64,000 nt of DNA from Bilabrum cf. latius (taxonomy: Eukaryota): the NCBI GenBank assembly GCA_965178125.1, contig OZ237738.1, positions 1,116,001-1,180,000 of the forward strand, given 5' to 3'. Below, one piece after another: positions 29,716 through 61,153 of the stretch (positions within the stretch are counted from its first letter, which is position 1; every line of letters begins with the position of its first letter). Under the pieces are notes generated by a model. It was not told the DNA's origin, ran no database searches, and saw only the letters and a program-made list of their open reading frames with translations. The translations under genes and the position numbers were made by a program.

Positions 29716-29929
29716 AACTCAAGTTTAAGAACTCAGCATGGAGAAATAGAACTGGGTAGATATGGCAGAGTGGAAGATATCTCCGCTAATTCGTTCGATA
29801 CAACTAGACGGCGGTATCGCAAGATTGGATGGTGCCACTGGCAGTGGCGCCCATTTCAGGTCGCAACTGGTCGCAAAGCAGCACTTCGCTTGAGAGGAAA
29901 TCCAGGCAAGTACAGCAGAGCAGGCAGAA

Positions 29930-32900: not shown

Positions 32901-34011
32901 GCCCTGACATAGTCCTCTTGTTCCACGGCCCTCCGTTTCCTGTCGAGAATTTCCTCCAGCATGGCTCGGGTTTCCGGGTCTAGCCCCATGGCGTCAGCAA
33001 GCTCCTCGGAGCCGTGCTCGGTCTCGTCTCCTGCTCGCTCCCGAGCACTTGCTCCGGCAGACGCTCGCCTCGAATCTTCGCCGACGCCGTACGTGGGTTC
33101 CTGTGATGAAATCTGGCGCGCGTCTGTCGAAGATACAGGTGCTCGCGCGCCTTGTGCCAGTGCCTGCGTGGCTGATGAGCCTGGCGCAACCTTCTGGCCC
33201 AGGAAATTGACCGCCACGAGCGCAACCTGCCCGAAGAGATTCTTCCCGTTCTGGTGCGGTTTATGCAACAAAAGCCTGATGAAATGGCCCCGAGCGTCGA
33301 TATACACGCTCTTGAGTTCCCTTGCCTGCGAGCAAAGGTGTCGCTTGCGGACGTAGTGGCAGGCAAAGTGTCTACGCTCCCATGGCAATTCATAGCCGCT
33401 TGATTCGGGGTGAGCTCACCCTAAAGTTACTTTCTGTGTTATCACTGAGGCTCATGTATCCAAGTCGTGTCCATTCGGCACTGTAGTAGTCCTTCCCAGT
33501 TCCAACGAATAATTCAACTTTCGTCGGAATCTTGCTTTGGTGAGCGAGAACCTGCGAAACAACCAGGCATTCGTTGGAAATATATGAGTTTCCATCAACT
33601 TGATGAGGGCAAATCTCGCCTTAACGGCACAGCAACGCAAGAGCAGCTCACTTGCAGTTGTGTAACTCTGCATGGAGCATCCTACAACCGGAGCCCAACT
33701 TCTTGCGGATATTCACAAAACCTGCGATGCAGTCGAACGATGGGGCGTGTGAGTCTTGAGTTGAGGTGAACAGCGTGGGCGTACAGTAGAGCACATGTTC
33801 TACTATTGTATGCCTGCTATTCAAACGTTAACGAATGGAAATCTCACCTTGGACTCTACCAGCCCTTCGTCATCGGACTGTGGGCATTAAGTTCAGAAGC
33901 TGGATATGAGGGATCTTCCCCAGAGACAAACACAACGCCAAACTTGAGCTTTTTACTCCTGGGCTTCCCGCCAGCACTCTTGCCCCGCGACAGGCCTCCT
34001 CTCGAAGACAT
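29930..34011 (-). CDS. CEP104: Centrosomal/ciliary-tip protein CEP104 (FAP256), 4 exons
   Basis: Exons 34011-33848, 33721-33652, 33551-33420, 33325-29930. N-terminal domain KGW*SPR|FCEYPQE..VLAHQSKIPTKVE..RLGYMSLSDN..ARELKSVY..NLFGQVALVAVN; coiled coil KRRAVEQEDY; TOG domain (SKKWQLREAAL). TAGs at 33856, 33682, 30284; ends TGA. Confidence 0.93.
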
Positions 34012-34945
34012 GCCTAATCTGACGTGGTGGTGCTAGGCGTGGCGAAACTCGACTGCTGCAAACTCAACTGCCCAACGGATTACCGATGCAAGTCGTGATT
34101 GAGGCGTATCCGCCTGGTTTCGGATGCCACCGTTTATGAGTTCGTTGGGAGGTTCCTTGGGGTTCGTCGTGAGGCCATCCACTTGGGGTGGCGGCAACCC
34201 CCTGAGAACTTGAGCCCATACACGTAGGCCTTTGTACTTGGAAACATGATGACCTTGAGAACATGCTGCGGGGGTATTTTCACGAGCACGCGAGCGTACG
34301 TGCCGCGTCACGCTGGCACGCACCGCCGTGTTTTGCCCCCCACTGCCTCGCCACGTAGGACTGACATGGTTTGCATGAGGCTCGCAGTTGCATGCGTCAA
34401 GTCAAGCCAAGCTATTGCATCGGTCCGGAGTTGCAGTTGCTGAACTGCTGCAGCTTGCCGTTCTGTCAAACGACCCGGGCGCTCGCCTTGCAGTGCTCCC
34501 CTGCCATCCGGATTGCCAGGGCGAGCAGGCGTTAGAGAGCGGGTGCACAAGCCCAGCGCGTGGACATCGCAGAGCCAGAGTATAGAGCTGCTGCTGCAAT
34601 TTGGGGATGTGACTTGAAGGTGTTTCCGCGTTTACGGGTCTACGCACTACGAACATCGGCTGACGGGGCAGTGTGGAGAATCCATCATGATTGCAGTCTT
34701 GCGACCAAGGCAGTCCAGTTTGAGCGACTGCCAGGGGGCTTGGACCGTGGAGCCGAAGTTCCACTGACGACTGATCAATCGCTGCAGCGCAGTATCAATC
34801 GATATATCAAAGGGGTAGACATACATCCACAGCTTTGTCAGTGCGTAATTGAAGCTGTGCATCAATTTTGCGCACAGGACCTGTTGCTTTGGCACCTCAC
34901 TCGACTACAAGTTGAGTACAAAGAATCGTATCCCTGTTCCAAAAA

Positions 34946-37900
34946 ATGGGATGCGGCGCTTCCAATGCAGCTGTAGTGGTAAGACACGATTCAATCGTTA
35001 CCTCCAATTAGCTGCCGTGTACCCGAACACGTAATTTTTACTCTTCAGCGCCCCAATCGATGTTCCACACTACATCAGCGGGAATTCCCATTCACGCAGG
35101 ATGACTTGCACAGCAATGGTACTTCGGAGGTCTCGTAGATACAAATTGATTAGCGTTATCGATCCGATGGCGGTTCATAGCGAGGACATGGCATTTGTTC
35201 GCCTTCATAGCGCGGCCCGTTCACTCCGGCAACCCCGGCTGCCAGCATCTGGGTGCTTGCAACGTACCGAAACGAGTCCTCCAGAGTGTTTTTTGGCCCT
35301 GGTCGAAAAGAAGGTACTGTTGTGCAAACTTGGTTGTGCAAGCAGGCGGCGAGGGTGCTCAAGAGCTTGATTCGGGCTCAAAGAGACTCTGCGAACCTAG
35401 CCGTCCCATGGGACATGATCAAAAGGCTTCGTCGGTCTCTGCCGCGCGTCCTTCCTCTAGCTTCAAAGCACCTTGATGTTGAGTCACCCCCAAAGTTACA
35501 GCTGTACTTGGATCTCGATTAGTTGTCCACCGTTGCAGCTGGGGCAGCACTGGTGCGGGACTAGTCCAGCCAGCGCAAGTCAGAAAGAAAAAGAGGAAAA
35601 GAGATCCGCCGAAGTAGCCTGACGAGACCATCTACTGCGAATCTCCTGGAACTGGCTGAAGCATCCGTGCGTATCGGCTCAGACTCGGCGGAGACCAGGT
35701 ACACGGTTCTTGGCGATGTGTACGAACACCACGCAACACCCGTTATGGCAGGGCAAACGAAAAAGGTCACAAGCAGACATGCATCAAGACATCGCGAAGC
35801 ATCTCAGTCTTTGTTTAAGCCGTCAATCCGGAGTTGTCTCCGCAATAGCAGGGGTCGCAGCCCAGATTCCACTGCGCTGGTCCTGTCAGCAAGCGACGGG
35901 CCACTGGCAGAAGCAGCCCCGGCAAATAGCACCCCACCTATGGCTAAACGCAACAGATTTGCATCGTACCGATCACAGCGAGCTCGGAAGGACGACGGCG
36001 AGGATGCTGGGCAAGTTACTGCTGGGGCCGGTCGCCCGGTAGGTAGTCTGCTCCCGCGCGTGGAAGAGGCAACCGACGAGGAGTAGAGCTCGTCTGCTGT
36101 CGGCATACAAGTGGCAGAGACCCTTCCCGGCGTGCCGCGGCACGCAGGTCCTGGATCCATGGATTCCCTGGGGCAGCGCCACGACGGCCCTCCTCCGCAT
36201 GGCAGCAGGGCCAGGGCAAGGGCCAGCTCGTTGCAAACGGCACCTGCATCAGGGTCTGCATCAGCACCAATGGAATCAAGAGCTACCGGGCCAGAGTCAG
36301 GCAGCTCTGATCGAAGCCGGATGCACGTGCAGCTGGGCGGTCTCAGCGACGACCGGTCTGGCAGCGATGCGAGCAGGTCGATCGGCACTGTGGACGAGAC
36401 GAACGTGGCTCCTGGCACCGTGGCTGGTGCCGTTGAGATCATGCAGAGCGCAGCGTCGGGTTTGCGGGACTACACGCTAGAAGGTGACATCGATGAAGGC
36501 GACTTGATGCCGGCCAGCTTTGCAAATGCACCGCTGGGCGCATCCATGTCACAGTCAGCGAGCGGGGCGCCCGTTGGACCTGGCTTGGCATCTTCTCCGA
36601 CGGCTGCAACGATCGAGAGTGAGGCTGACAGCCACAGCAGAGGCTTTGATTCCGACATACCACAGGCGGCGATCAGACTAGCTGCGGGAGTCCCAAGAGC
36701 AAAGGGTGCTGCGGGCGTCTTGCAGGGCACGAGCAGCAACAGCAACGGCAGCAGCAGCGGCAGTCGCACGAAAGGCACCTCGTCTTCCTCCTCGTCCGGC
36801 AAATCTTTGTCAAGTGCACAAATTGATCCAGCCCCGCAGAAGTGGAAGGAGTAGAAAAAACGGGAGCGCGACAGCCGGAGGAGCCAGCGTGCGATGAAGC
36901 GAAACATCACGATCCGGGGAGATGGACCAAAACCTTTACACCCAGACCCACGGAACTCAGACCTGGCGGGCAGTGATATTGCGAAATCAAGCAGCAAGAC
37001 TAGCGGACAGACCTCAAGCAGCAGCAGCGGCAACAGGCAGCCACCGCAAAGACGGAGCGAGCAGCCAAGAGCACCGCGACGGCAGCGCGTCGATAATAGC
37101 CTCAGGATTCCGAAGTCGTTCAGCGCGAGCAGCTTCGAGGGGAGCAGCGTGATCGATGGCGGGGGCAGCTCAGTGCAGGGCAATGACTCGGCGATCGAAT
37201 TTGCGGGGGCGGGCGAGAGCAGTTCGTTCGCAGAGTCGAGCTTGGGGTGGAAAACATCCGGCAGAGGTGGCAAGAGCCAGAGCTGGGGCAAAGGCAGCAC
37301 GTCCAGCTCTGCCGTGCACGGCATTGTGCTTGCCTAGAGCGGCACCAGCAACAGCAACAGCAACAGCAACACCGTGCCTGGTCCAGGAGGCCAGCGAGCA
37401 CCGCATGGCAAGAGGTACAATGCCAGAGCCGCTCTCGAGAAGCTTCACCCAGCTGAAGTGTTTCTCCCCAGCGGGGATGCCCTCCCTGTCCCTGCGGTAG
37501 ACATTGAAGAAGAGGTTGGATTCATGTACAGCGGAGACGTGGTTGGCATTTCGGACAGCGGCGCAGCGGGCGATGGCCAGAGCCGGCCAGATAGCTCTGC
37601 AACGTCAGCGCGCATACCGGGGATCCGCCAGAAGCGCAAGGTCGTCCTCTCGCCTCTTTTTGTGATCCGCATGCCTGGCGTGATCTGGCCCCAGCTCATG
37701 CGACGGAGCGCCTTCTTGAAAAGGATGAAGAGATTCCTGGGCCTCGCCACCATGGCCATGGTGCGGCTGGAGAAGAGGCATGCGGAGCCGTCCTAGGCCG
37801 AGAGGGCGAGCGGTGATATGCAGACAAGCACCGTATAGAACGCATCGGGCAGCAGGTTTCAAACGGATGCCAGCGTGCAACCGGACGTGAGTCGTTCCGG

Positions 37901-38489
37901 CAGCCAGCACGACGCGCATGGTGCTGCAGCAGGCACCTCGAATGCGAAAGCGTCAAGAGGAAATGTGATTGCGAGCGGTGCGCTTTCAGCAGGCCATGCC
38001 CATAACAACAGCACCAAAACGGTTGAGCTGGCCGTAGCAAGTGCCTCTCATGACTCGTCCGGGTCGGTTAAGGCACACTTGCACTCGCCAGGAGAGCATC
38101 GATCCCCCATTGGAGACAGGCATGGAACTCGAGGCGCTGCCGTTGGTGGTGGGCAGCTGGCAACTGAAAATGGTGAGGCCGCGTTTGCCAGTAGCATGGA
38201 GGACGAGGTGGACGAACTCGCCAAGATCGATAAGGTGAGCAGTTCGTCGTCAACCGGGCACAGCAGTGCCCCAAAGGGAGACTCAACCAAGGCCGGCGGA
38301 CGCAACCTGCCTCGGCCTGGCCGAGCATGGTCGGCTACACCACGCACCACTTCAAAGCAGGCCGCAGCACCACAAGCTCGGACGGGATCTGTAGCTAGTT
38401 CTAGGCTCGGAAGCTCGGTGGGAAGCAGCAGTAGGCACAGGAGTGACATGAGCGTGGGATCAGGCGCCAGCACTGCCGCGCCCAATTGA
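34946..38489 (+). CDS. Hypothetical protein with MGCGAS N-acylation motif, member 3 of the three-paralog family
   Basis: Exon 1 34946-34978 (MGCGASNAAVV), intron 34979-35099 (GTAAGA..CGCAG), exon 2 35100-38489 with 11 TAGs, ends TGA. Blocks SRVFFGPGRKEGTVVQTWL and VVLSPLFVIR..FLKRMKRFLGLATMAMVRLE. Confidence 0.78.
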
Positions 38490-44035: not shown

Positions 44036-47000
44036 TCATTGGCCAGTGAGAGCAGCGTGTACTTGAGCCGCCAGCTCTCTCTACGAAGGGTGGCCTCTCA
44101 GGAGGTTCGAAGCGATTCGAAGGGCCTCAAACGTCGCCTTCGGGTCGCCCCCGCCGTCCGCCATGTGCGCGTCCAAGGCGGCCTGGGCTCCAGCCGGGAC
44201 ATACTTGACGCCGCAATCGAGCAGCACGAGGGCCCGGTACGGGCTGTTGCTGCTAAGCCTGTCTGCAATCTTGACTGCGGCTTCTGAGCCGTCCCTCTGG
44301 CAGGCAAGGCACTGCCTCGCTGGCTCGTCCCATCGGATGCCCGGAGGCGCGTACCGAACGGCGTTGCACAACGCAAAGATCTCGCCGGGCCCGTCCACCT
44401 CCGGCATGGCCTTTGCGGCTGCCTCCATGGTAGCACGCCACCACCTGCTAGAGTACTTGTCTACCCCGAGTGCCTCGCGGATTTCATCCGCCATCCGGGC
44501 AGCAGGCCCAGCCAGATCGGAGCCCCTCGCTTTCCCGTTCAGCGAGATGCAAAGCAGGCTCACAATCGTTTCCTACCCGCTCTGGCCGCGCAAAGACCCG
44601 CGCGATAGCTTCAGGCCCTCCTCCGCCTGCTGCTGCATCCGCAGGAGGTCTGAAGCTGATTTCGCCTGCTGCGCCATCACCTGCAGGAAGACCTTGTCCG
44701 ACGCGGACACTGGGATCTTGGCGGCATTGGAGCCGCCCGTCTCCCCCCTCGCCCCGACGGCACCACCAGCCTCTGCGATCCTCCCGTCCGCAGCCGCTGC
44801 AAGCGTCCCCCGTGCCCCACTGAGCAGCATGGCGCGACCCGTGCGCGCGCTGCACGCCTGTGCGCTCTGCAGCTGCACCTCGGCCAGATCCAGAGGCTTG
44901 CGCAGGAACGCCAGCAGCCTTCGCAGCAGCGTGGAATCCCGTCTCCTCAGCGCGCTCGCAAGCACCGGGATGGCGCTGCGATGCGACGCCACCAGCGCAA
45001 AGAAAGCCGCCTCCAGTGCGCGGTCCTCGATCTCCTGGGAGGTGAGCCCTCCACGGCTCGGGTCGTCGCCTGCGTGCGCCGCCCGGAACGCCTCGTATGC
45101 CTGCCTGCCCTCCGCTTCAGCCGCCGCAAGGACCCGCTTGTCCACGATGAGCTCCCGCAGGGCGAGCAGGGCGGTGACGAGGAGGTCGGATCTGCTGCCT
45201 GGGTTGGTCTCCCCGGCCTCTATGGCTGCCTCGAGCGCACGCTTCCCGAGGCCCATCCGCAGCAGCAGGGGCACCCTCCTCTCTGCCTGCGGCTCGCGCG
45301 CGAGCAGACGTCCCGCCAATTCGGTGTTGCCTTCGTGGTACGCGAGCGCAGCAAGATCGCCCACGTTCACCCTCTGTGAGGCCACCCTGGCTGCCCTAGC
45401 CAAAGCGGCTTCGTTCCCAAGCAGTTCCTGCCAGGACTGGATCGGTCCGAGAGCGTCCGGCTGCACGGCTTTGGCCAGGCTGAAGAGGATGGACGCCTCG
45501 ATGCTCGCCGGGGATGCACTGCTCCCGCCCCTCCCACCGCTCGCGCCGCCACCCCCATCCGTCCGTCTGTTAGCTACCAGAGCCGCGGCCCATTCAGCGA
45601 TGACTCTCCCTCGGGTATCTCCGCCAGCTGCCTGCCTCTGACCCCCGTCGAGCTGTCTGAACTGGTCTGCCACCTGAAGGGCCTTGCGGAAGGACCCGCG
45701 CCCGGACAGCCGATCCACGACCGCGTCAGGGCCCAATGCCTGCCACTGGGATGACGTCAGAGGAAACACGCAGCGGTGGTCCGCCTCGGCGCCGTGGTTG
45801 CCTGCAACTGAGTCCACCACGCCCCGAAGAGCAAACAACACCCGCATTCGCCGCGCAGCCGCCGCGAGCGCCGCAGAGAGCGCCATCTGCGGCAGCTCCA
45901 CGGCCCCAGTCACGGGCCCGCCCTCGCCGTCCATGCCGTCCTCGGACAGGGCCCGGTCCTCCGAGCCCTCCTGCCCGTCGGCACCGCCATCACCAGCGCC
46001 AGACGCGGGCTCGCCGCCAGGACCACCTCCACGTTGTCCGGCGTTCAGACCGACGATCCCGGTGTCTTCCGCAGTGGGCCTCGCCACCGAGATGCCCCAG
46101 GCAGCCGAACCGAGGAGCTTCCGGCACAGGCCAGGCGTGCCCGCGTCCTGCGCGGCTTCGATCAGCTGAAACACCGCTGTGCGCAGCTGCCCCTGCTGCC
46201 TCAGGCTTCTCACCTGCTTCTCCGCCTCGGCCTTGCCCTTCTCGGCATCCTGGCTCGCTGCCAGCAGCAAGGCGCACGGCTGCAGGCTGCCTGCCAGTAG
46301 CGTCTGCGACAGGGTTAGCGGCACGGGCTCGAGCCGGAAGGTCTGTCTCTGACCCACGATCCTGACAGAGTCCACGTCAGTTCCCAGGGCACACGCCATG
46401 AGTCCGCCTCCCGGGAGGGGCACCCTCAGGCAGGCCCCTGTGTTCCCCACCAGCAGGGCTCCCGCCTGGTCCGAGTCGGATGCGATCACGCTCAGGTCCG
46501 GCGGGGGCGGCCAAGACACGACCACTGCGTCTTCCGTGCACCACGCGAGGTGGTCGGGCGAGATGGGGCACTGCAGCTCGCAGTCCAGGTAGCACTGCTC
46601 GAGGCTTGCGCCGCAGATTCGCAGGTGGCCTCCGCCGGTTACAATCGCCACGTACTGCGCAGATGGCGAAGGGCAAATCATGATGGCGGGGCTGACGGGA
46701 TCCAAAGCTGCCCCCGCCGCATTCAGGTCAGTTCCGACGCCGTTGGAATCGATGGCTGCAAGAAGTGGCTTGCGACCGGATGCGCCCAGTACCACCACAG
46801 GGAACACGGCGCCCGCGCCATCCTCATCGTCCTCGCCAGCTTTCGACTCCACGCCGGCTGCCCTGCCACCCTTGCGACCTCGCCTGGCCGACTTGCCGCT
46901 GGCCCCGGCCCCCGACGCGGCTCCCGCCTCGCCGTCGTCCCCGTCGTCGCCTTGTTCCCTGGCCCTGGTGGCCGCTGCCCGCATCCATGACTTGGCAGCC

Positions 47001-48060
47001 TCCGGCAGGATGGGCTGCAGGATGGCCATGCACATGGGCTCCACGCCCTGAGGCAGCCCCGTGGACTTTGCCTGCCGGAATGCAAGCTCGTCCGCGAACA
47101 CGTCTGGGATGCACCAGACGGAAAAGTCGTCCACGATAGCCGTCTCCACTCCCGGGTCTATGGCAGGGTCATCCCCTGGCCTGCGGGGGCGGGGCCGCTG
47201 CACCTGCTTCTGCGACTGCACCACGACTGCAACGGAGAGGCTGCCCACGGCTGCCTTGAACACAACGGGCTCTGTGCCGCCCCCGAAGCCGCCCGCTGAG
47301 GAGCCGCCCCTCTTTTGTTCCCTGACAGCAGGCAGACGGACGCAGGCGACCTCCCTACCGCCTAGCGGCGCGTGGCTGCGGAGAAGAGACAAAGAGGGGT
47401 GTACGCTGTTCAGTGGGCAGCAGCGAGATGGGGGCATAGGGACGTGCGCGGCGCGGTTGGTTCAAGCCCATGGCTAGAATGCATTACTGAGCAATCGAGA
47501 CGGTCCCGGCTCATTCGCTAGCAGACTCACATGGTGACGATACCTTGCTGCCACACGCAAATCAGGCGCTCTGATCCGTCCCAACCCATATCGACCAGTG
47601 CGCCGCGCTCTTCAATGCTAACGGACCCATAGGCATTTCCGGGTCGATCGCAAGCTCCAATTTTAACGCCATCAGGGTCGTAGATCCTCGGTACAAGCTC
47701 AGAATCGGCTCGCACACGTCCTAGGCGCAGCCCAGCTCCGGCACCTCCGGATGACGGACGGGGAGCAACTGCAATAGGCCCAGAGAAAGGCGCAATACGA
47801 ACAATACAATCTTCAAATGAGCCCGGCCCACGCTGACCTCCATCCCTCCAGCTCATGTTGCACAACCGAGGCATGCGAAACATGCTTGCCTCGGATCCGT
47901 CATCATCATCGTCAAAATCATCGAGCCGCACCCAGCCATATGAAGATTCGTCTTCATGGCCTCCAACTGGATCTTCCCCAAATGTTGCAACGAGCGTGTT
48001 GCCGTACTCCTCTGCGGCATCTCGCTCATCACCTAGGTCTCCTCCAGCAAGAGCTGCCAT
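44036..48060 (-). CDS. VPS16: Vacuolar protein sorting 16 (HOPS/CORVET core subunit), 2 exons
   Basis: Exon 1 48060-47531, intron 47376-47530, exon 2 47375-44036. Motifs IAPFSGPIAV, MGWDGSERLICV, LAWCTEDAVV, PLTSSQWQALG..VVDRL, VPLLLRMG..ALEAAIEAGE, RWW. TAGs at 44573 and 44081; ends TGA. Confidence 0.9.
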
Positions 48061-48710
48061 CGATACCAACAAAGTTAATCACGGAAGTAGGTCTCCAGCA
48101 GCTTGATTAACTTAATTGAATATGCTTTTGGCAAGATTTTTAGCCCTATGTAGGCTGTATGAGTCCCAAGTTGCGTCAAGTAGGGAAACCAAAGCCGAAG
48201 CCGGCTGTACAGTGCACTGCATCCTACACTCGTCACACACTGCCACTCTGGCAGGTTGCAAAACAGACGAATTTGTACCTTTCTAGAGCGCGCTTCAGTC
48301 TTGAGCGGATGGTGATAATAATATTCTGCTAGTTGTATAGGTGTGTGATGAGAAAGAAGTTAAATTGTGAAAGTTAGACATTTTTAGCTCACTATTCACG
48401 ATTGCGCCCCTTTGCATGCATTGCCCCAAACCACAGCAAAGGCCACAATATCAGTATTTTTCTAATTAAGCACATAAAATCGACGATATTGTAGCTTTGA
48501 GGCTTCGATTCGGCTTTCGGACTTCCGGCAATCCTCATTCTCGATCCGGATTGCGGTGGTCATTCACGTGTTCCGGTATGATACCTTCTAGCATCCTAGC
48601 TTCACTTCATACATAGAGATCGCTAACACCAAGCAGCATCTGAGCCGTTTCATCTTGCCTCTACGCTTCTTAGGTACGACTTACTTTGAAGGGCGCCCGA
48701 TCGAACACTG

Positions 48711-51700
48711 ATGCTGAGGACCTCCGGGCAAACCGCTTCTGCGGAGCAGCACCTCTCCGGCATGAAACAGAAATAGAGGTGCGGGGAGATACTGCACAGT
48801 ATAATTACCGGTGCCTTGAACCTAGATGAAATTGCCGACGCAGTGAGGCCATTAACGCTTGCCTATTCTTGGTGCACCTGCGCTTGTTGATTGATGCTGC
48901 TGCCAGTAGTGGCATTGCCTGTGCTCCATGTATCACCTCTTTTGACCGCAGACACCAAGCATGATTCGTTTATTCGTCCAATCAGCTCTAGCACACGGTC
49001 TTCGATTGGAAGTGAGCGGATTCCGACAGATAGTTTTTCCCACCGTTCCATACCTTGCCACCCCAGTCAGAGACTATAGTAGTAGCCCTTCCAGCCCCCT
49101 CATACGCCATTTGAACAACTTCACACGTATATATATATAAACATTGCATTATTTCATTAGGTACAGAGGGGCGGTTCGATTCTGCATGCGTCTGTGCAGT
49201 CGATGCAGATCAAGCTGACAGAGGCCGTGCTTTCCACAGGACCTCGCATTGATGCTCGTAACAACGTAAGCACGAGCTTATCCGTTGCAATCGATTGCTT
49301 TATGATACAATTAAATCCTCCTGCATGTATTCGATGATTGCTGCATGGTCTTGCACCAAGCTCGCAGCACGGGGACACGCCACTGCACCTAGCTTGTAGC
49401 TATGACCACCCCAACGCGGAATGGATCGTGAGCATGCTATTGGCGGCAGGGGCCTCGACCAAAGCTCACAATAACGTAAGAAAGCGCCCAAGCAGTACCT
49501 GACTGGGATCTTGTTGTGCGCTTGGCCTCCTAGCTAGAGTCTCACCCTCAGCTGCAAACTCAACTTTCGTTGTACGCCTCTTGCACTCAGTGTGTGTAAC
49601 GTTGTGCTGCAGGCGTCTCTATCTATGCGCTGGTTGGTGCGCGTGCTCCCAACAAGGTGCCACGATTCCAGCGCCACATCTCCACGGTCCGATCAAACCG
49701 GAACTCTCCGCGCGCTCCGACTCCCAATTTGAAACACCCCCGGGGGGGCTCACCAAGTGCAGAAGCTAGCTACCCAGAACCTACGATCATATACAATTCT
49801 CCGTATATTCTGAACTTGAACGGCTGCAAACCCGAGGATGCCGCCTTGCTGTAGCAGTGAGTACGTCAGTAACGGTGTGAGAACCCATCCAGATCAATGT
49901 TTCGCAGGATTCTCGCATGCCGATTGATGTGGCACGGCGCTGTGGACTGCACAGTATTGTCGCTATGCTGGAGTGCGAGACTGCATCAAAGTCAGCGGCG
50001 GCCACGCTGGCGGGGCATTCGACCTGCGAGCAAAGCAAGGTGTCACGGAATGGTGCTAAGCCCTCCGATACGCCGACCTAGACCGCCATGGGAGCCTACA
50101 TTGCTAGGGATGCCGATATGGCTGCGACACTATTCGATGACAGGGAGAGCTTACGTCGACAGATCGAGATGGTTGGTGGCGTGAGTAAATCATTGCTCTT
50201 GACGAGCGTGCACCACTTTTCGATCTTAAACGCAGTACAACGCCGGCCTGCCTCGAGCCAGTATTTAAGACGACGATGCCAGCCGTGCAATGCTTGCCAC
50301 CACTCGCAGCACGGATACACCATCCTCCACTACGCTTCTATCGCGGGTCACGACAAGGCAGTCAAAACGCTTCTCGACCTGGGTTGTGATCCCAACTGCA
50401 CTTCCGAGGTGAGCCATTGTGATCTGCAGATCTCCTACAGGGTGCTCTTCCCCCCCCCCGGCGGCTGAGCTGAGCTGGAGCTATCATGGCGAGATGGCTG
50501 TCTGGAGCTAGACGCCCTGCCTGTTGTGATACGATGTGCGCCATCCCGGATCCGGATGCATTTGCAATTCACGACTGTATTCTCAAAGCGGTGCACTTCA
50601 TTTAGGCTCATTACGCAGTTTGGCTGGACACCGCTCCTGCTTGCTTGCAGTAGTGGAGTCCGGAGCAGCCGAGTTGTTCGTTTACTGTTGCAGCGAGGGG
50701 CGGATGCGACCATTAGCGACGTGGTAAGTTTCATCAGTGTCAACTTGATCCCAGGTACGAATTATGTGCACTCAATGTAGCACAGTGCCGCCTGTTCCGA
50801 GTGTCTGCCTGCCCCAATCGATTGCTCTATCGAGGTCCAGCGCTGCACCTGGTCTTACAACTGCACGACACTCTATGCATGCTGCACACGTCCCGCGCAG
50901 AATGGCACGCTTCCTATCCACGCGGTATCCTAGGCCGACACGGATAATGCTGCAAAGATCATTCCTATGCTGTTAGCTTCAACGCCTGTATCAGACCCAG
51001 ACGTCAAGGTTAGTGGCCCTCGAGGCCGGACTCAGTAGGTCGATTGTGCAGGCAAGATGTCGACTGGCAACCCACACATGGACTGGCAATCCGAAGGAGT
51101 ACAGGGTGCAGCATCAAGCATGATGAAAGATTAAATCTGAGTGCACGTAAATGGGCTACACTAGTCTTGCTCTTTGTTCCCCTCTTTGGATCGCGCAGGA
51201 CAGCGAGGGGCGGACGCCGCTCCAGCTCGCAGTGGCATGTGGCAACCTGTGCTCCGTGCGCAATCTGATCCAAGCCGGTGCCAGAGTGAAGAAGGAGGGT
51301 GGAGATCCTGTTTTGTGTGTGAGACCTGCGCGGGTGATTTGAGCACTTGCTGCAGAATTATCTGTTAGGTATGCGCTCCTTCACGCTGTCCCCGATGCCT
51401 CGATGCCTGTTGCTCCGATGCATCGCAGGGCTCCAGCACGATCATGCACTACGTCGTCAAGGAGCAGTGCGCTGCAACGCTCCGCCATTTACTGAGCATT
51501 GGTGTTGATCCCATGGCTGTAGACGGCGTGAGACTATGAATTGCCACTGCTCTGCAACTCGCCACATCATCCCGACACCCGGATCGTCCGACATTTCCTC
51601 ACGCTGCGCTTGTAAAACAAATCATTCATGGTTTGAATTGTCGGTATCTGAAGCCCAATCGTGACAATTTTGCTACTTCGAGTACCTATCGCAGGACGGA

Positions 51701-52627
51701 AAGCTACCCATCCACATCGCTGCCGAGCAGGATGACGCTGACTCGATCGTCTGCCTGCTCAGGCACATGCCCTTCACCACTTCCCGCCTGATGATCAAGC
51801 ACGACCAGCACGGAGAAGAGTACAAGCAGTCGATGCAGCTGCACGGCTTCCGTCTGCGCGGTGACCAGCTGCTGCTGCACCGCCGCGCCCATCGCGCCAG
51901 AGAAGATGCCAAGAGGGTGTTCAGGGCCGCGGCAGAGGGCCGCCCGATGGAGCTCGAGAAGCGGTTGAAGTTCGGTGCACTGGCTGGCGGTCTGGAGATT
52001 CGTGGAGCACTTCATTGTGGCGTGGTGTCGCAGGTGCTGGAAGTGGTCGGTGCTGTGGGGCTCGATAGGGCTGACCCAGATGCTGCTGAGTGGAGCATGA
52101 GTGCAGACTACCGCACGGCCCTCACTGCTGGCGCTGACGCACCTATCGAGCCGCCTGCTGCGGGGCAGCTGACTATACCGAAGCCCGGTGCAACAAGTGA
52201 GCAGCACGGCAGTTCTTCGGCGAGCGCTATGTCAGAGCTAGCTACTATCTCCAACGCTACGTCGGCCGCGAGTGGCCTAACAAGCAGCTTCGGGCCGGCG
52301 ACAGTCCCGCGATACGTAGCTGTCACATGTGGTCCTTTTGCGGCTGCTATCCTTGGAGACCACCAAGACTGCCTCAAAGTGCTATGCGACGCGCTCTTGG
52401 ACTTGGCTGGACCGTCGGTCGGGTTGCAAAACCAGATTCTCAGTGAGCAGTTCGTTGCGATCCCGAGCGACGGCGCCCAGCGGGCTGCTATGGGTGCGCA
52501 GCTGCGTTTATTCGTGCTGGAGAAGGTGGCTCATTTTGGCAACAGTGAGGATATTGATCCGGCAATCATGGGTCGTCTAGCTACTGTGATGATTGAGCGG
52601 ATCGCGAAGCCTCAGGCGCGAAAGTAA
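48711..52627 (+). CDS. Ankyrin-repeat protein A, 11 exons
   Basis: Exons 48711-48842, 48952-49011, 49167-49265, 49368-49475, 49908-50180, 50310-50408, 50619-50723, 50901-51008, 51199-51318, 51429-51527, 51695-52627, all introns phase 0. Repeats HGDTPLHLAC, HGYTILHYAS, FGWTPLLLAC, EGRTPLQLAV. TAGs at 48774, 50079, 50931. Ends TAA, but the 3' end is uncertain. Confidence 0.8.
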
Positions 52628-52725
52628 GCTCCTGGAGAGCGGCACAGTCGGCGCGCCGGAGCAAGCGCTCGGGGAGCGACGGCCGCTCGTAGCGAATAGT
52701 GCCCAGCTTCTTCTGCCTAAAACCT

Positions 52726-52879
52726 GTGCCATACGGCTTGCCCCTTTCCAGCGAGACCGTGGAGACCCGTGCCCACTGGGCTGCCCCTGTCCAGCGAGAC
52801 CGTGGAGACCGTGCCCACTGGGGTGCTGCCCCTGTCCAGCGAGACCGTGGAGACCGTGCCCACTGGGGTACTGCCCCCC
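52726..52879 (+). repeat. About 3 imperfect tandem copies of a 42-45 bp unit (VPTGVLPLSSETVET-like coding potential)
   Basis: tccagcgagaccgtggagacc occurs three times, each followed by gtgcccactggg; the first copy has an extra C near 52768. Confidence 0.85.
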
Positions 52880-53388
52880 GATGAGGCCATCGCCAAGGAG
52901 AGCCAGTTGCCGTCAAAGAGCAGGCGCGCTTTCACCTTGGAGCGACGGGCATGATGAAGCGCATGGCATCACTGGGGAGTGTGGGGGTGGGTCACGGTGC
53001 GGGACCGGTTGGCACCGCCACCTCGAGAGTCATGCTCACAGGGAGACCCTGGACGGACCTGTTGGGTGCTGCGAGACGGGGCTGGCCCGAAATGTCGTGA
53101 TGCTATGGACTATGGTTGCGTACATTGTATGTAAAATAGAGTGCATCGGTGTGTAGAGGGCTCCAGCTGACGAACGTGACGAGAGTTCGTTGCAATCGTC
53201 ATCCCTGCTGTACTTGACCAGCACTTGTTTTTTCCACCTTCGCCAAAGCACGCTCATTCATAAAAATCAAAGCAGTAACAAACCTGTATATAGGTATCAT
53301 AGCAACTAGTGCTCTTTTCTCATACACTGAGCGAGAGGAATCGCAGAAAGTAGCGAGCATTCCAGCACCAGATCACCTTGGGTGAAGA

Positions 53389-56300
53389 ATGCCACAAATC
53401 ATCGACGCTCGGATTCTGGAAAGGCTCCGAACACATGAGCTCTCAACAGTGGAATGTCGAGAAATGTACGATATGGTGTTGGACGGGAGAATCAACTTTG
53501 ATGAGACGGTAGAGCTCGACCAGGTGAGTGCATGCACTGAAGCTGCAACTGCAACTGCACCCATTCATGGGAATAGCACCCAATTTCAACCAACTTGATT
53601 CCATTTCATGCGTGCAGCCAGACAAGAGGGTAGTTAAATCGTTTGTGCATGCTTGTGGCGCACACGGTATCCAACACAGTGTGAGACTAGAAATTCTGAG
53701 GCTACTGTTTGCGAGCAGAGTGTTGCGATACGGCCCGCCACTGATGCACCGTATGCTTGATATCGCAGGACGGCCAAACGATGCTACATATAGCAGCAGC
53801 AGTCAGCCAGATCACTCTTGTGGAAGCAGTCCTGGCCACGGGTGCAGATGCGAACTACAAGAGCACTGTGAGCAACCTGGTTGGATAGCACCCTTCGTGG
53901 CGATTGGAAGTCATTTAATTGGTAATTTTCTACTCGCATAAGGATATTATAATTGTATTATAGCCCTTTCGCACCCTGCAGGGAGGTGACACCCCTCTGC
54001 ATATTGCCCTCAGAGCCAACCAGAAGCACCCCTCTGCGTCATCGAGGGTCGTGAGCATGCTGCTAGGAGCTGGTGCCTCCCCTCTCGAGCCAAATGGTGT
54101 AAGCTACGAATAACTAAGCTTGCTATATATTTTTGTGCTTTGATAGCGGTGCATTACTTCGCTGGTGCCAGCTTGAAAATCGGTAGCCGGGATCGCTGTC
54201 CGTCCGCCCAATGGCTCGCTATCATCAAGACCTCTCTTGAGATGTCCCCTCTACATGCTAAGCCCCACCTTAGCAGCGTCATCGATTCCTGTGATTTCTT
54301 CTTCGCAGGCTGGCGAGACCCCTCTTGAGTTGGCAAACCGCATGCACCTCAGCGAGCTCGCTGCAATGCTCGAAACAATGGTGCATGAGCACCCACAAAA
54401 ATCCCGTACCGCTGCGAGTGCCTGGTCCGGGCCCTCCAACACCTCGGGAAAACCACCTTCCGGCTGGGGCCCAGGCCCAGGCTGGGGCCTAGACGACCGA
54501 GGTGCAACCGGTGATTCGCCTGCTCCACATGTTGAGAGCGCTGGCAAGCCAAAACAGACCATCCTGGAAGCGTATGCAGCTGGCGACACCGAAGTGGCTC
54601 GCAGCCTATTCAAAAACGAGGGTAGCATGCGGAAGCAAGTCAATGACTTGGGCCAAGTGAGTCTCATAGAACAATTAGCAGTTGGAATGAAGCTGGCTGC
54701 TTGGCGGACATGGTCAGGCGCACGAGAGCGACTCCGGGTCGTCGGTCGTCTACATCGAGCCGTTCCATCAACCACTATACATGCGCATGGCAAAGACTGT
54801 TCTATCCCGCAGTATGACTGGACACTCCTGCATTTCGCGGCTCGGGCTGGGCATGTTGAGGAAGCCGAGCAGCTGCTGTCGGCTGGGTGCGACGTCAATG
54901 CGCAGTCTGTGGTGAGCGACGTGGCTACATGTGCTGATGCAGTCTGTTGCACCGCACCCTTCTCTTAACGAGGCACAACTCCCTGTTGTCATCCGCCGTT
55001 GACTAGACCGAACATATATTACACTGTGGCACCTCCATTCGCCACATCGCAGTTCGGGGAGACTGCCCTGCTGGTGGCATGCTAGGCTTGGCAACGACGG
55101 CGGGACATGATCTGTCTCCTGCTCCAACACGGTGCAAATGCAGCTCTTGCAACATCCGTGAGGCGGTACTCGTTCTGTTGGCTGCACGTAGCTTCTCAAT
55201 AAACTTATGTGGTCGCGAAAAGTAACATTGCAGCATTCCAATCGCTCCGGTCTGCGTCCACGAATCCCTGCCATTCACCGCAGGCAGGCGTGCTCCCATT
55301 GCACTACGCCCACAAAATCATAAATGACGCTGGTGGTTGGTCCGATAACAAACCCACGGACAAGGACGGGGCATGCGTCGCGATGCTCATCGCTGCGGCT
55401 CCAGGGCTCCATCCCGACACAAAGGTGAGAGAAGGTGGCAACTGCCAGTGCCACTCGCCGATGAAAACATGTAAACGAGTGCTCATGATTTGCAAGCGAA
55501 GTGTGCTTGTCGTGAGGTGGTGTGACGGGTGCTCTTGTCTTGCTTTGCTGTCCTGAAAACTCGAACGCAGGATCCCGACGGTCTCACACCACTTCAGCTA
55601 TGCATTATGAACCACAACATGCCAGCCGTCCGGAGCCTCGTTAAGGCGGGTGCGCGATTGCGGGATGCAAATGGACAGCCAGTCAGGGCCGTGAGTCGAA
55701 GGTTTGCGCTGTGCACTGCAAGGCTAGGTTCGCAAGACTGGCCATTCGACCTTGTCGTTTCCCTCCCCCCCGACGGACCGGTCGTCGTCTCAAACAGGTA
55801 GCAATGCCCCACAATCAAGGCCTTATACCGCAGAATGGCACGACACTGATGCATTTTGCAGCCCGTCACAAGTGCATCAAGACCATTCAGCACCTGCTGG
55901 GAAACAAAGTACAATCGACAGCCTATGACGATGTGAGTAAGAGCCAGGTATGTGTAGCTCGGGCAAGCATCAGACCGTAGTTGATGGCACGGTTGCACGC
56001 GTGCATGCCCAGATCTCAATTTGCAGGACCAACGCCTACCCATCCACATCGCTGCCGAGTACAATGACGACAACTCGATCGTCTGCCTGCTCAGGCACAT
56101 GCCCTTCACCACATCCCGCCTGATGATCAAGCACGACGGGCACGCGGGGCGTATCAAGCAAGCAATGATGAAGAAAGACTTCCGTCTGCGCGGTGACCAG
56201 CTGCTGCTGCACCGCCGCGCCCATCGCGCCAGAGAAGATGCCAAGAGGGTGTTCAAGGCCGCGGCAGAGGGCCGCCCGATGGAGCTCGAGAAGCGGTTGA

Positions 56301-57838
56301 AGTTCGGTGCACTGGCTGGCGGTCTGGAGATTCGCGGGGCACTGCACGAAACACCTGAACTGCTACAGGAGCTATCCAAGGTGGTGTCAAGTTGGGAAAA
56401 GACAGTTATTGCGCGGGACAAGTCGTGCTGGTCGACAGACGAGTCCTCGGCGTGGTCGGGAGCAGAGCAAGCAGAGAAAAGTTCGATACGGCCTGCATTA
56501 ACAGCAACAGGTGATACCCCGGCGTGGCCTGCATCAAGCACACCAGATGCTGCCCCGGCGTGGCCCGCATCAAGCACACCAGATGCTGCCCCGGCGTGGC
56601 CCGCATCAACAGCAACAGGTGATACCCTGGCGTGGCCTGCATCAAGCACACCAGATGCTGCCCCGGCGTGGCCCGCATCAAGCACACCAGATGCTGCCCC
56701 GGCGTGGCCCGCATCAAGCACACCAGATGCTGCCCCGGCGTGGCCCGCATCAACACCAACAGGTGATACCCTGGCGTGGCCTGCATCAAGCACACCAGAT
56801 GCTGCCCCGGCGTGGCCCGCATCAAGCACACCAGATGCTGCCCCGGCGTGGCCCGCATCAACAGCAACAGGTGATACCCTGGCGTGGCCTGCATCAAGCA
56901 CACCAGATGCTGCCCCGGCGTGGCCTGCATCAACACCAACAGGTGATACCCCGGCGTGGCCTGCATCAAGCACACCAGATGCTGCCCCGGCGTGGCCTGC
57001 ATCAACACCAACAGATGCTGCCCTAGCGTGGCCAGGATCAAGCACACCAGATGCTGCCCCGGCGTGGCCCGCATCAACCACACCAGACTCAACCCCGGCT
57101 TTGCCCGCAGCATCGGCCAACGTAGCTGCACCAGAGATGGACGTCGTGTCATCTCCTGCGCGTGACTTGCCCGCAGGCGAGACCACCGAGTTGGAGCGAG
57201 ACCAGCCCAAGACCGAAACCACTGGCAGTGTACTACGAATCCTGCCTGATGCCAGCGGGGCAAACCCGATTGTCTGCGGCCCGATCATGGCAGCTGCTGT
57301 AGGTGGCCATGATGAGTGCATCCGAGTTATTTTGAACCATCTGCACAGAAGGCCTAACAAAAATGGGTGCGCAGTCGGGACCAACGCTATCGCGTAGTCT
57401 GCAATTCGAGTACACGCCGCGGTTGAGGCACAGGCACTCGAGTTGCCACCATCTCGATTGAGACACGACCAAGATTAGAGTATATCCTTGGAGGTGGTCA
57501 AAGTGACTCTCAGCGAGTTCCCAGTTCCCAAGGCATGCCCAAACAGCTGTCAGCACGGGAGGCGCCCGCTAGAGCAGATGGTTGAAATCGCTAAGTGGTA
57601 CTGCGCGGCACCAAGCCAAGTCTAGCCTCGCTTGAAGGAGTGGAGGCCAGAGCAACGGCGTTAGGGCGTGGTTCGTACTAGTAATGGGACTAGCCGACGA
57701 GAGACGACTTTTCGCGTTTGGCGAAGGAGGAAGACTGTACGTCAACAGAGACACAGACGCACTCTACGTCAGCAATCTGACGATGACACCGCCACCGGTG
57801 GTGAAATCTTCCGGATGCCATCAATGTCAGCGTATTGA
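53389..57838 (+). CDS. Ankyrin-repeat protein B, 11 exons, tandem paralog of A
   Basis: Exons 53389-53523, 53618-53680, 53769-53867, 53982-54098, 54309-54656, 54813-54911, 55053-55157, 55284-55424, 55571-55690, 55834-55932, 56027-57838. Exon-for-exon homologous to A. TAGs at 55083, 57395, 57476, 57623, 57662; ends TGA. Confidence 0.82.
56519..57094 (+). repeat. Coding minisatellite: 16 x 36 bp encoding PAWPASSTPDAA and variants
   Basis: Unit ccggcgtggccYgcatcaagcacaccagatgctgcc, with variants ending TATGDT or TPTGDT; lies in frame within the last exon of ankyrin gene B. Confidence 0.95.
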
Positions 57839-58015: not shown

Positions 58016-61000
58016 TTACTTCTTCGAAGCTTTCTTCACCTTCTTCTCCTTCTTGGATTTCTTTTCCTTCCTATCCTTCTTGTCCTTCTTTTCTTTTTTG
58101 CCACTGGGACCGCTACTAGGTTCGACGGCAGGAACTTGGCTGACACCGGCTGACGGCCCAATGCCATGGGTGAGTGCAAGTGCACCTGCCAATTCTGCTT
58201 CATCACCATCGCCATTGCTTCCGCCGGCACCTGCGACTCCTTCCTCTTCGACATCAGCTGAGCCGTTGCACACAGCAGAAAGAACCGCGTCCATCTCGCC
58301 CCGATGGCTCGTCCACAAGCTGCTAGCGCTAGCAACTACATCAGTGCTCGCTCCAGATACTGCTAGCAGATCAAGAGGAGGCGCATCCCACGCGCGGACC
58401 CGCCCCCCTTCCTCCGCTTCAACCAGCGGCCGTAGCGACCGAAGACCCTGCTCGTAGGCAGGCACCAGCGACTCCCACGCCCGAGGACTCGCGTCGATCC
58501 GCAGCATCGGCTTAGCTCCTCGCGCGATCGCCTCGTCTTGTTCCCTGGCACGACGGGCCATTCGGACCGCCCGCCTGGCATCTACCGCGGCTGCCCCGGC
58601 TGTCTCCTACTCATTGGCGCTGCTGCCCGCCGCCCGGTCGGCTGCCTCAGCTGCCGCCTCCTCAGCTTCGTCCACGTCCATGGCAGCACCATCGGCACTC
58701 CTGCCCACTGTGCTCAGCAGCACGTATTCGCCTGCCATGGCACGACCTCCGAGAAACCTCCTCATCTCCATGGCAGAGCACAAGGTCAGCGCCTCGCCGG
58801 CGCGGCGCGCCCTGGCGGTCCTACCCACCCGATGGACGTAGGCCTGCGCCGCGGCCGGCGGGTCGTACTGGATTACCGCGTCGAGCTTCGGCATGTCAAG
58901 ACCACGAGCGGCAGCGTCGGTGCACACTAGGACGGGACACGCAGCAAAGCCTGCCGCGGCCAGCCGCAGCAGCTTCTGTCTTGTTCCCTAGGGCATTCCC
59001 GACGAGTACTCGAAGACGGACTGCTCGGCACTACCCGAAGCACCTGGTGCGGACTTGTTAGCCGTTGCTTCACCCGTCTCTGCGGCGTCAGGATCCCAAT
59101 TCAGGCCGTCTTCTTCACTAATATCAGCCTCATCGGCGCTATCTTGCATATCAGCCTGTCCGCTGCTGCTGCTGCTCGGCCCACCCAGTGCCTTGCCTAC
59201 ATGTGTGCCTTCCATGGGGACTGCCGAACTATCGACGGCGGGACTCGCACGGGCAGGCGGGGGCACCTGCATGAGCTACAGCAGGCGAGTGAGACGATGT
59301 GCGCCATCCACAGACCCAGCAAAGACCAGCGCCTGCTTGCCCAGCTTCCACAGCCGAAGCAGCTCCAGGGCAAGCAGCAGCGGCTTCTCGGCCGCCTTGC
59401 ATACTGCCACGGACTCCCGCAGCTTCCTAGGAACCCGACTCAGCGTGGTGACAGTGCCAGCCGCCAGACCCGCACCAGAATCACCGTCCTGCATGTACGA
59501 AGGCGGGGGGACGACCATCACTTCGCCCACTCCCAGAGCGGCCATCCTCATCGGGTCGCTGGTCATCGTTGCGCTGCACAGGACCCTGATGAGTCCGGGT
59601 GGGCCCGCGGCTCGCTAGGCAGCGGCTTCTGCAGCGGATGAGGAAGCAGAAGAAGATGAAGAGGAGCCTGCGCCGCTGCTTGGGCCCCTGCTCCACCGCA
59701 TGTCATGGCCAAAGAGGCCAGCCGGCAGACCGAGAGAGGCCGCCTTGCCACCCACCCTCGAGGTGTCTGACCTGGCGTACCTGAACCCCGCCGCGTTGCT
59801 CGAACCACCGAGACCGAACACGCTCTCCTCGTCTGCACTGCCGTGCGATGCATGCTAGCAGCTCGCAGAGGCAGGCATTCTCCTGAGCGCTTCCCGAAGC
59901 CTGGCCAGCCAGCCCGTGCGGATTGACCCAGACGATCCTAGCAGCCTGTCGGCCTCGTCCAGCACGAGGAACTGGAGGTGCTCTAGCGTGAAACCAGGCG
60001 TTTCTTCCAGGTGGTCCACCAACCTGCCTGGGGTGCACACCAGAATGTCGGGAGGCGAGCCGGCGAACGGCACCAGCTCGCCCTCACCGTCCACCGCAGC
60101 ACCATCGTCCTGGCTGGACGGCTAGTCCCCTGCACTCGTCACGATTGGCCCTTCGATAAGCCCAAGAGCCAGCTAAGCAGCCACAGACACCCCCGCCAGC
60201 GACTCGGCACCGCCGGACTTGGCCAGCAGCGAACGTTCCTTGGCGAAGTCCGACTGCCCCACGGCAGCGGTGACCCGCAGGGACGTGCCCTTGCACAGAG
60301 TGCGGAACACGCGGTGCACCTGCACGGCCAGGTCTCTGGTGGGAAGTATGACGAGTGCCCTCAGCCTCGGCACAGTCCTGCCCAGCAGCCCCTGAACAAT
60401 CGGCAGCGCGAACGCGAGCGTCTTTCCGCTACCAGTGGGCGCGACCAGACAGAGGGTCCGAACGCCTGGGTCCATGGACCGATGCGCGTGCATGAGAGCG
60501 GGTACCCCATGGGACTGCACGGGGAACAAGGGCGCTTCCGCGATGAGTTCTGCGGCGTTGCGGCACACTCGCTCATGAAGGCCGAACTGCTTCAGGGCCT
60601 ATACCCCCGCCTTGACCTCTGAGAGGCGAGATACCATAGAGCGAGGAGTCGCGACTGATTCTGCGAGCTTTGGGAGTGCTGTGTACTTTCGGAGCGGCGT
60701 TAGCACCGAAGAGGCGAGCTGCGCTTGCTGCAACGCGGCGGCGGCGTAGTCGACAGTTGCCGACGCACCTCTGCCATCCTGGCCCAGGGCGCCTTGTTTA
60801 ATCAAACCGCGGCGAGTGGCCGCATTAAGATCAACGGATGTTCGAAGGGCGGAGCCGATCGCAGCAACAGCAGTGAGTGCTGCAGCGGACTCGATCGCAG
60901 CTCGCTTTTTCTGCGGTTCATCCTCGTCGGGCTCGGCGATGGCTCCCGCGGAGCGACTCCCAGCCGTTGAATCGCCTTCATCGATATCACTACGACCAAT

Positions 61001-61153
61001 TTCTGCTCGGGATCGTTTGCGGGCCGATACTTTGGCGGCAAGCTTGGACAGCAACGTAGACTGGGCCCCGGAGCCTTCGCCCTGGGGAGAAGCTACCTCG
61101 GGCTCCTGCTCCGACGCTGGAGTGTTTCCATCAAAACGATCAACTGAAAACAT
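58016..61153 (-). CDS. DDX51: DEAD-box RNA helicase DDX51/Dbp6, 1045 aa
   Basis: ATG 61153 (MFSVDRFDG) to TAA 58016. Motifs [59 protein letters not shown] in order across 8 in-frame TAGs (60599, 60173, 60122, 59855, 59615, 59276, 58988, 58607). Lys-rich KKE/D tail. Confidence 0.95.

Follow-up and report, generated by a model that had tools for sequence, protein, structure and literature searches.

A UAG codon read as sense, most probably as glutamine, beside retained UAA and UGA terminators in nuclear DNA from a Bilabrum cf. latius assembly

The window analysed here, 64,000 nucleotides of contig OZ237738.1 (positions 1,116,001 to 1,180,000, forward strand) from the Bilabrum cf. latius assembly GCA_965178125.1, is eukaryotic nuclear DNA of about 60% G+C overall (50-70% range), and in it the triplet TAG is a sense codon. 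The nuclear genome appears to read UAG as sense, most probably as glutamine, and to keep UAA and UGA as terminators, a reading that we hold at a probability of roughly 0.85. A change of UAG alone is a known but rare kind of code, known from few protists. The TAG codon at 50079-50081 from which the analysis departs belongs to a set of about 80 ordinary TAG codons that stand in frame in the window, and lies in an internal, spliced and expressed exon of an ankyrin-repeat gene (gene A) that has a diverged paralogue (gene B) in the same window.

TAG in frame and the retained terminators

Reading TAG as sense lengthens the longest frames of the window to 2186, 1721 and 1385 amino acids, against 1043, 962 and 700, and the gain from reading TAA or TGA as sense is much smaller. 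Twelve confident frames comprising 13,887 codons contain 79 in-frame TAG codons, no TAA and no TGA, a count made with TAG defined as sense, in which a TAG acting as terminator would go unseen. The two off-frames of the same 12 hold 111 and 108 TAG, 33 and 51 TAA, and 178 and 277 TGA. Homologues recognised among the long frames with Pfam are Vps16, CEP104, a DEAD-box helicase, a leucine-rich repeat (LRR) protein of the RNI type and a tetratricopeptide repeat protein. Genes with in-frame TAG codons include the following.

58016-61153, minus strand: DDX51/Dbp6-type DEAD-box helicase, 1045 amino acids, 8 in-frame TAG codons, ending at TAA 58016-58018 (Pfam DEAD and Helicase_C; orthologues)
13968-16076, plus strand: LRR (RNI-like) protein, 702 amino acids, 9 in-frame TAG codons, ending at TGA (Pfam LRR_6)
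139-2244, minus strand: secreted-type protein, 702 amino acids, 5 in-frame TAG codons, no Pfam family
44039-47461, minus strand: Vps16 homologue, long exon, 2 in-frame TAG codons, ending at TGA
29933-33415, minus strand: CEP104 homologue, 1 in-frame TAG codon, ending at TGA

The invariant helicase residues of DDX51, from Q213 to G777, all lie in one frame with six TAG codons between them, and beyond one TAG of the LRR protein the in-frame sequence remains conserved, as far as a shared C-terminus, in P0178, a relative with 79% identity. Pseudogenes would collect all three stop triplets together with frameshifts; only TAG is found in frame, and TAG is therefore sense here. Pseudogenes and nonsense alleles were rejected on the absence of in-frame TGA and TAA and on the precise removal of six introns of gene A in a single contig. 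Annotation of this genome under the standard code would cut most of its long genes into pieces.

The ankyrin genes add a view of processed RNA.

49161-52627, plus strand: ankyrin gene A, partial, at least 9 exons, 649 codons (joints in contigs, GT..AG checks)
50079-50081, plus strand: TAG, in-frame codon 129 of the partial gene A model, unchanged in spliced contigs X5 record 2 and X7 record 13
50931-50933, plus strand: second TAG of gene A (IHAVS-TAG-ADTDN), exon piece 50900-51006 unchanged in spliced X5 record 2
53389-57838, plus strand: ankyrin gene B, 11 exons, 1045 amino acids (ten GT..AG joints in X5, X7 and X8 contigs)
54555-54557, plus strand: CAG (Gln) of gene B, partner of the TAG at 50079, exon 54309-54656 in spliced X5, X7 and X8 contigs
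55083-55085, plus strand: TAG of gene B (LLVAC-TAG-AWQ), opposite Ser (AGT) of gene A, exon 55053-55157 unchanged in spliced X8 record 21

Matching contigs occur in eight public runs from four studies, none of them recorded as RNA, and four runs were compared with the window over 47400-56400. The contigs of runs X5, X7 and X8 skip at least 15 stretches, and all 15 listed are GTRAGN...YGCAG introns of 88-210 nucleotides; since the skipped stretches coincide precisely with GT..AG introns, these contigs derive from spliced RNA. X5 record 2 (1081 nucleotides) covers 49707-50180 with no differing letter, continues across the joint 50180>50310, and is as long as expected once six introns of gene A are taken out; the stretch 49775-50180 is also found, again with no differing letter, in X7 record 13. 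The TAG codons at 50079, 50931 and 55083 thus stand unedited in processed RNA (contigs of three runs), and neither RNA editing nor intron removal explains them.

TAA and TGA remain terminators. When TGA is taken as the only stop, TAA triplets are found at frame edges only and inside none of the long genes. Genes end at TGA in 11 of the 12 long coding frames and in ankyrin gene B, and at TAA in DDX51 and ankyrin gene A; the sequence beyond both of these TAA codons looks non-coding, and a second TAA follows 31 codons beyond the terminal one of gene A. Only one long extension precedes a TAA, at 34365-34982; it lacks a start context and does not resemble coding sequence. As in-frame TAA and TGA are absent and genes end at both, the reassignment is confined to UAG. 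A code in which UAA and UAG are both reassigned (code 6 type), with TAA merely rare in a G+C-rich genome, is scarcely credible on these data. Such a code would sit comfortably with the base composition, with TAA being the rarest stop triplet of the window (219 occurrences) and with the near-exclusive use of TGA at the ends of long frames; set against it are the two genes that end at TAA and a deficit of TAA in frame, since, were TAA glutamine, about 23 in-frame TAA codons would be expected from the CAA:CAG ratio of 114:387 and more from the ratios GAA:GAG (291:532) and AAA:AAG (115:286), where 13,887 codons contain none. The retained TAA stop, which was absent from the original prediction, is the more unusual feature when compared with the TAG reassignment itself.

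The amino acid at TAG

In every homology search TAG was read as X. Among 60 DDX51 orthologues, two of the eight TAG codons fall in columns occupied in all 60 sequences, and the other six lie in lineage-specific insertions. At residue 626 (TAG 59276-59278) the orthologues have Gln in 33 of 60 sequences, Lys in 12 and Glu in 10 (HRLTRLL[TAG]LMQ against HRLTRLL[Q]LLW); at residue 722 (TAG 58988-58990) they have Gln in 24, Pro in 15 and Lys in 8 (SSGMP[TAG]GTR against SSSLS[Q]KQR). The flanks of both columns are ungapped, and the orthologues most similar to the query carry Gln at both. Residue 722 is presumably the Q of the helicase Q-x-x-R motif. Alignments of DDX51 to structures in the PDB skip the TAG positions, those of Vps16 either leave out its TAG codons or reach one of them in a stretch without significance, and the homologue search for Vps16 had no returns, probably because low-complexity words swamped the candidates.

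The LRR protein offers a comparison at closer range. Its TAG at 16008-16010 (residue 681) stands opposite Gln in P0178 (GGHEECVKLL[TAG]KSMIKPEDVG against GGHEECVKLL[Q]TSMVKPEDVG). P0178, one of the 150 best matches of the LRR protein in an exhaustive search, is a protein of 256 amino acids, 79% identical to the C-terminus of the LRR protein; it starts at an internal Met and has a single 13.9-kb Logan contig as its source. It looks like the fragment expected of a standard-code gene caller when an upstream TAG cuts the frame, and public reads thus probably include a close relative, or a paralogue, that shares the code. A pattern search for the C-terminal domain of the LRR protein among metagenome contigs gave 133 matches, none of which was confirmed.

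Paralogues within the window supply five partners of TAG, two of which are Gln. One comes from a three-member family of long, Ser/Gly-rich proteins with no Pfam match, located at 24002-26263 (plus strand), 26467-29718 (minus strand) and 34983-38486 (plus strand). The family has common blocks at the N-terminus (SRVFF-x-PG…W-L) and the C-terminus (VLSP-x-F…FL-x-RM…LG…V-x-LE), and the 26467 copy begins with MGCGVSS, resembling a myristoylation signal. A single TAG of the family falls in a firmly aligned block.

29275-29277, minus strand: TAG of paralogue 26467-29718 (LVQNWLVS-TAG-LCRIP)

It stands opposite CAG 35343-35345 in paralogue 34983-38486 and opposite AAT 24350-24352 in paralogue 24002-26263.

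The second Gln partner is the one on which the original prediction was built. It held that TAG 50079-50081 pairs with CAG 54555-54557 in an alignment ungapped to a common splice donor, and that this proves the identity of TAG within the window, with no external database. The pairing itself is borne out. Both codons are in frame, gene A reading ...PSDTPT[TAG]TAMGAYIARDADMAATLFDDRESLRRQIEMVGG and gene B reading ...AGKPKQTILEAYAAGDTEVARSLFKNEGSMRKQVNDLGQ, each followed by GTGAGT, and each codon lies exactly 33 codons upstream of its own GTGAGT donor. The aligned block spans 36 residues without gaps, with 13 of 35 identical (TAG excluded). The donors 50180/50181 of gene A and 54656/54657 of gene B are real splice sites at which GT..AG introns are skipped, in contigs of X5 and X7 for the former and of X5, X7 and X8 for the latter, and the two genes are undoubted paralogues (local alignment score 897; 264 of 635 globally aligned pairs identical).

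The proof does not follow from the pairing. Gln occupies 3 of the 36 positions in the block of gene B, so that any residue faces Gln about 8% of the time, and from the pair alone, with a flat prior and substitution probabilities matched to the divergence of the block, the posterior of Gln is 0.27. The two ungapped pairs combined, again under a flat prior, give Gln 0.26 and Ser 0.17. The two genes contain seven TAG codons, of which three have a partner (Gln, Ser, and Trp in a gapped stretch) and four lie in unaligned tails; the partner of TAG 50931 is ambiguous, being Trp or a gap. The pairwise alignment of the spliced models that had been proposed as a check returned Gln opposite TAG 50079 and, for the other alignable TAG codons, Ser and Trp or a gap. 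At the divergence of A and B the paralogue comparison does not identify the codon. The TAG/CAG pair is real, yet weak as evidence, and far too weak alone to name the amino acid. The assignment to Gln put forward in the original prediction is most likely right, with the reason given for it, one pair, being insufficient and the support coming mostly from external sequences. As a point of method, the meaning of a codon is beyond the reach of a single paralogue pair that is about 35% identical, but can be read from a pair with about 80% identity or from orthologue columns that are conserved.

A pooled test was made in the manner of a small Codetta analysis, with log-odds summed over well-occupied homologue columns for every codon. 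The 13 TAG columns reject Leu (-16.6), Tyr (-15.2) and Trp (-18.6). Leu is also absent from the residues listed at both DDX51 columns and reaches -21.7 in the combined log-odds, and UAG as Leu, as Tyr or as Trp was discarded on these values. Columns at TAG are less conserved than those of other codons, the mean frequency of the top residue being 0.29 against 0.51. Restricted to conserved columns, with a top residue of 40% or more and 57 of 60 controls decoded correctly, the test gives TAG 4.6 for Gln against 1.9 for Lys, from two columns only. When columns, paralogue pairs and the 79%-identical relative are combined under a flat prior, the posterior is 0.889 for Gln, 0.087 for Asn, 0.017 for Lys, 0.005 for Ser and 0.002 for Glu. 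Because of this posterior, and because stop-to-Gln is the commonest UAG change in eukaryotes as described in PMC5304391, we estimate the probability that TAG encodes Gln at about 0.85-0.9.

Several results weigh against glutamine or against the reassignment as a whole. Pooled over all 13 columns, the log-odds rank Asn (2.9), Lys (2.7) and Ser (0.8) above Gln (-0.1), with 58 of 60 controls correct. The evidence for Gln at high identity is a single position, TAG 16008 against P0178. The LRR repeats, searched with the 150 best matches and a local phmmer run that gave 1639 repeat alignments, present polar and variable positions opposite TAG, most commonly Lys, Asn, Glu and Ile, with no Gln signal. 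No TAG of the 702-residue secreted-type protein is informative in its alignment with 39 homologues: four stand in variable, though occupied, columns, and the remaining one in a column that is nearly empty. Among the residues listed, Gln stands opposite TAG in one of the 39 homologues and one of the four occupied columns. The paralogue partners other than Gln are Ser, Asn and Trp or a gap, and TAG 55083 of gene B, opposite Ser of gene A, runs counter to the rule of the original prediction that CAA or CAG should face TAG. Finally, ARAGORN and Rfam find no tRNA gene in the window, and Rfam no other RNA gene. Much of this would be accommodated if TAG were sense but stood for another polar residue, namely Asn, Lys, Ser or Glu, and codes with UAG as Glu and UAA as Lys are known in other protists, as described in PMC10553269. 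We nevertheless regard this as unlikely. The columns that favour Asn and Lys belong to the variable class (8 of the 13 columns, top residue below 30%), in which only 20 of 55 controls were correct and the true Gln codon CAA was decoded as Ser; as the controls fail there, the pooled test has little power in such columns, although its outcome still tells against an unambiguous assignment. Gln is found in the relative with 79% identity and leads at each of the two conserved DDX51 columns, where Asn and Ser are minor or absent, and the combined posterior leaves little to the other four residues.

A code that depends on context, in which TAG is Gln within genes and also ends some genes, as in Condylostoma, is about as improbable. 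It draws on the definition of the frames, which makes TAG terminators invisible, on the four TAG codons in 90 codons of the 3' tail of gene B, and on the secreted-type gene, where one TAG precedes the TGA by 8 codons, close to the point at which the 39 homologues end; this last point, too, speaks against a plain reassignment. On the other side, each long gene reaches a TGA or TAA, with 8 to 423 codons between the last TAG and the end and no clustering; the LRR TAG that lies 21 codons from the end is read through, P0178 being conserved beyond it including the C-terminus; and 216 codons pass without TGA or TAA after the last TAG of paralogue 34983. It is very unlikely that TAG 50079 in particular is untranslated, either because gene A is an expressed pseudogene in which CAG became TAG, a single transition, or because translation starts at ATG 50088, three codons downstream, which would leave the TAG in a 5' untranslated part. 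The joint 49475>49908, which would lead from the upstream exon into the TAG exon, is not among the joints listed, and with the spliced contigs starting within the intron that precedes the TAG exon (at 49707 and 49775), the RNA does not show the upstream junction. Gene A nevertheless matches gene B before and after the TAG without a change of frame (MPIDVARRCGLHSIVAMLE against TPLELANRMHLSELAAMLE upstream), the upstream exons are homologous to exons 3 and 4 of gene B with GT/AG sites in phase, and the second TAG, at 50931, lies between exons confirmed by RNA in the middle of the ankyrin repeats. Across its 649 codons gene A is also free of TGA, TAA and frameshifts; the 12 other frames hold their 79 TAG codons with no other stops.

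Known codes, a possible mechanism and lineage

Reassignment of UAG to Gln with UAA and UGA kept as terminators would be explained most simply by a copy of tRNA-Gln(CUG) in which a single change has produced the anticodon CUA and which would decode UAG; by the argument set out in PMC5304391, this anticodon could not pair with UAA, owing to the C:A mismatch, and UAA would stay a stop. Recognition of UAG by eRF1 is predicted to be lost or weakened; like the tRNA, the eRF1 gene lies outside the window. The TAG codons themselves mostly occupy variable, surface-type positions, which would fit an origin from CAG by C-to-T change where constraint is weak.

UAG and UAA almost always change meaning together, and cases confined to UAG were unknown before 2017 and are still few, as described in PMC5304391 and PMC11687900. 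The pattern of the window is that of a UAG-only change from stop to sense, most probably to Gln (Iotanema type; the pattern of NCBI table 15). The fornicate Iotanema spirale uses UAG as Gln and both UAA and UGA as stops (PMC5304391, PMC9161772). As described there, it shares with the window the reassignment of UAG alone, apparently to Gln, and the retention of UAA as terminator, and the mechanism predicted for it is the same, a tRNA-Gln(CUA) unable to read UAA together with an altered eRF1 (PMC5304391). It differs in that UAA is its primary stop, whereas in the window TGA ends 11 of 12 long frames and TAA two genes; I. spirale is known from transcriptome data in the description of PMC5304391, and the comparison is with that description only. 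The phyllopharyngean ciliates Hartmannula sinica and Trochilia petrani are given a putative UAG=Gln code in PMC11687900, likewise with UAG alone reassigned and UAA retained as a stop, and differ in the same respect, UAA being their preferred stop and TGA the main stop of the window. The window has 50-70% G+C, GT..AG introns of 88-210 nucleotides and very long genes rich in Ala, Gly and Ser. We take these features to be unlike ciliate macronuclear DNA.

UAG is decoupled from UAA also in the rhizarian exLh (PMC5304391) and in an uncultivated phyllopharyngean lineage (PMC11687900), where according to these sources it encodes Leu, the residue rejected in the window. Codes of the NCBI table 6 type, with both UAA and UAG as Gln, are described in PMC5304391 from many ciliates, hexamitid diplomonads, some ulvophyte green algae, oxymonads and an aphelid; the likeness lies in UAG read as Gln by a mutated tRNA-Gln, and the difference in TAA, which is not sense in the window. 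A literature search covering main texts found no nuclear UAG change in stramenopiles and no further UAG-only lineage.

Signals of lineage come from the same proteins. The best matches of DDX51 have about 36% identity at most, and none of the best 120 carries a green-algal or plant name. Among named matches the nearest belong to stramenopiles: DDX51 comes closest to Chrysoparadoxa and the secreted-type protein to Cafeteria. Homologues of the secreted-type protein, at 27-44% identity, come from Cafeteria roenbergensis and deltaproteobacterial metagenome bins. A FastTree phylogeny of DDX51 with 61 rows, none dropped, places the query in an 18-row non-opisthokont group on a branch of 1.71 and with unusual composition, a placement that is unsafe. 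Tentatively, and with the chances somewhat below even, the window may come from a lineage not yet known for a variant code, non-ciliate, non-opisthokont, G+C-rich and intron-bearing, which acquired UAG=Gln independently and uses UGA as its main stop. If so, the rare UAG-only code would have arisen once more, separately, in a type of genome from which it has not been described. Each such case tests how the ribosome, one tRNA and eRF1 distinguish UAG from UAA, and UAG-only codes bear on the engineering of amber suppression in eukaryotes.

Ankyrin gene models and neighbouring features

The model of gene A contains TAG at 50079 and 50931 only and ends at TAA 52625-52627. Its exons are as follows.

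49161-49265, 49368-49475, 49908-50180, 50310-50408, 50619-50723, 50901-51008, 51199-51318, 51429-51527 and 51695-52627, plus strand: exons of ankyrin gene A

The exons 49161-49265 and 49368-49475 are placed by homology to exons 3-4 of gene B and by in-phase GT/AG sites, not by RNA, and the junction between 50619-50723 and 50901 was deduced from the frame and the record length. A high-copy element lies in an intron of gene A, at 49507-49807, with a contig depth of 291 against about 10-26 nearby and many loose ends; the only differing letters of the compared stretch, at 49594-49711, fall within it. Gene B extends from ATG 53389 to TGA 57836-57838, with TAG codons at 55083, 57395, 57476, 57623 and 57662 and no internal TGA or TAA. 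A contig of run X6 over 53041-56400 is unspliced, 3.5 kb long, and has a loose end resembling a template-switching cDNA primer, a combination that points to a cDNA library containing unspliced RNA or carried-over genomic DNA.

The 3' tail of gene B, at 57395-57664 (plus strand), carries TAG at about seven times the coding average of the window and lacks an equivalent in gene A. This tail might be an untranslated part or conceal a missed intron. The DNA segments 51691-52014 of gene A and 56023-56346 of gene B are 89-93% identical, most of the remainder being far more diverged, a pattern that suggests gene conversion of a C-terminal module between the two genes. This is the only high-identity duplicate in the window, and it contains no TAG; tandem repeats of the window likewise contain no in-frame TAG. 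The C-terminal module (…EGRP-x-EL-x-KRL…AGGL…, then GGH-D/E-EC) is common to ankyrin genes A and B and the otherwise unrelated LRR protein.

15800-16076: C-terminal module in the LRR protein
51900-52100: C-terminal module in ankyrin gene A
56200-56400: C-terminal module in ankyrin gene B

No Pfam family matched the module. Further downstream in gene B, at 56517-57109 (plus strand), a 36-nucleotide tandem repeat present in 16.5 copies encodes a 12-residue unit rich in Pro, Ala, Trp, Ser and Thr.

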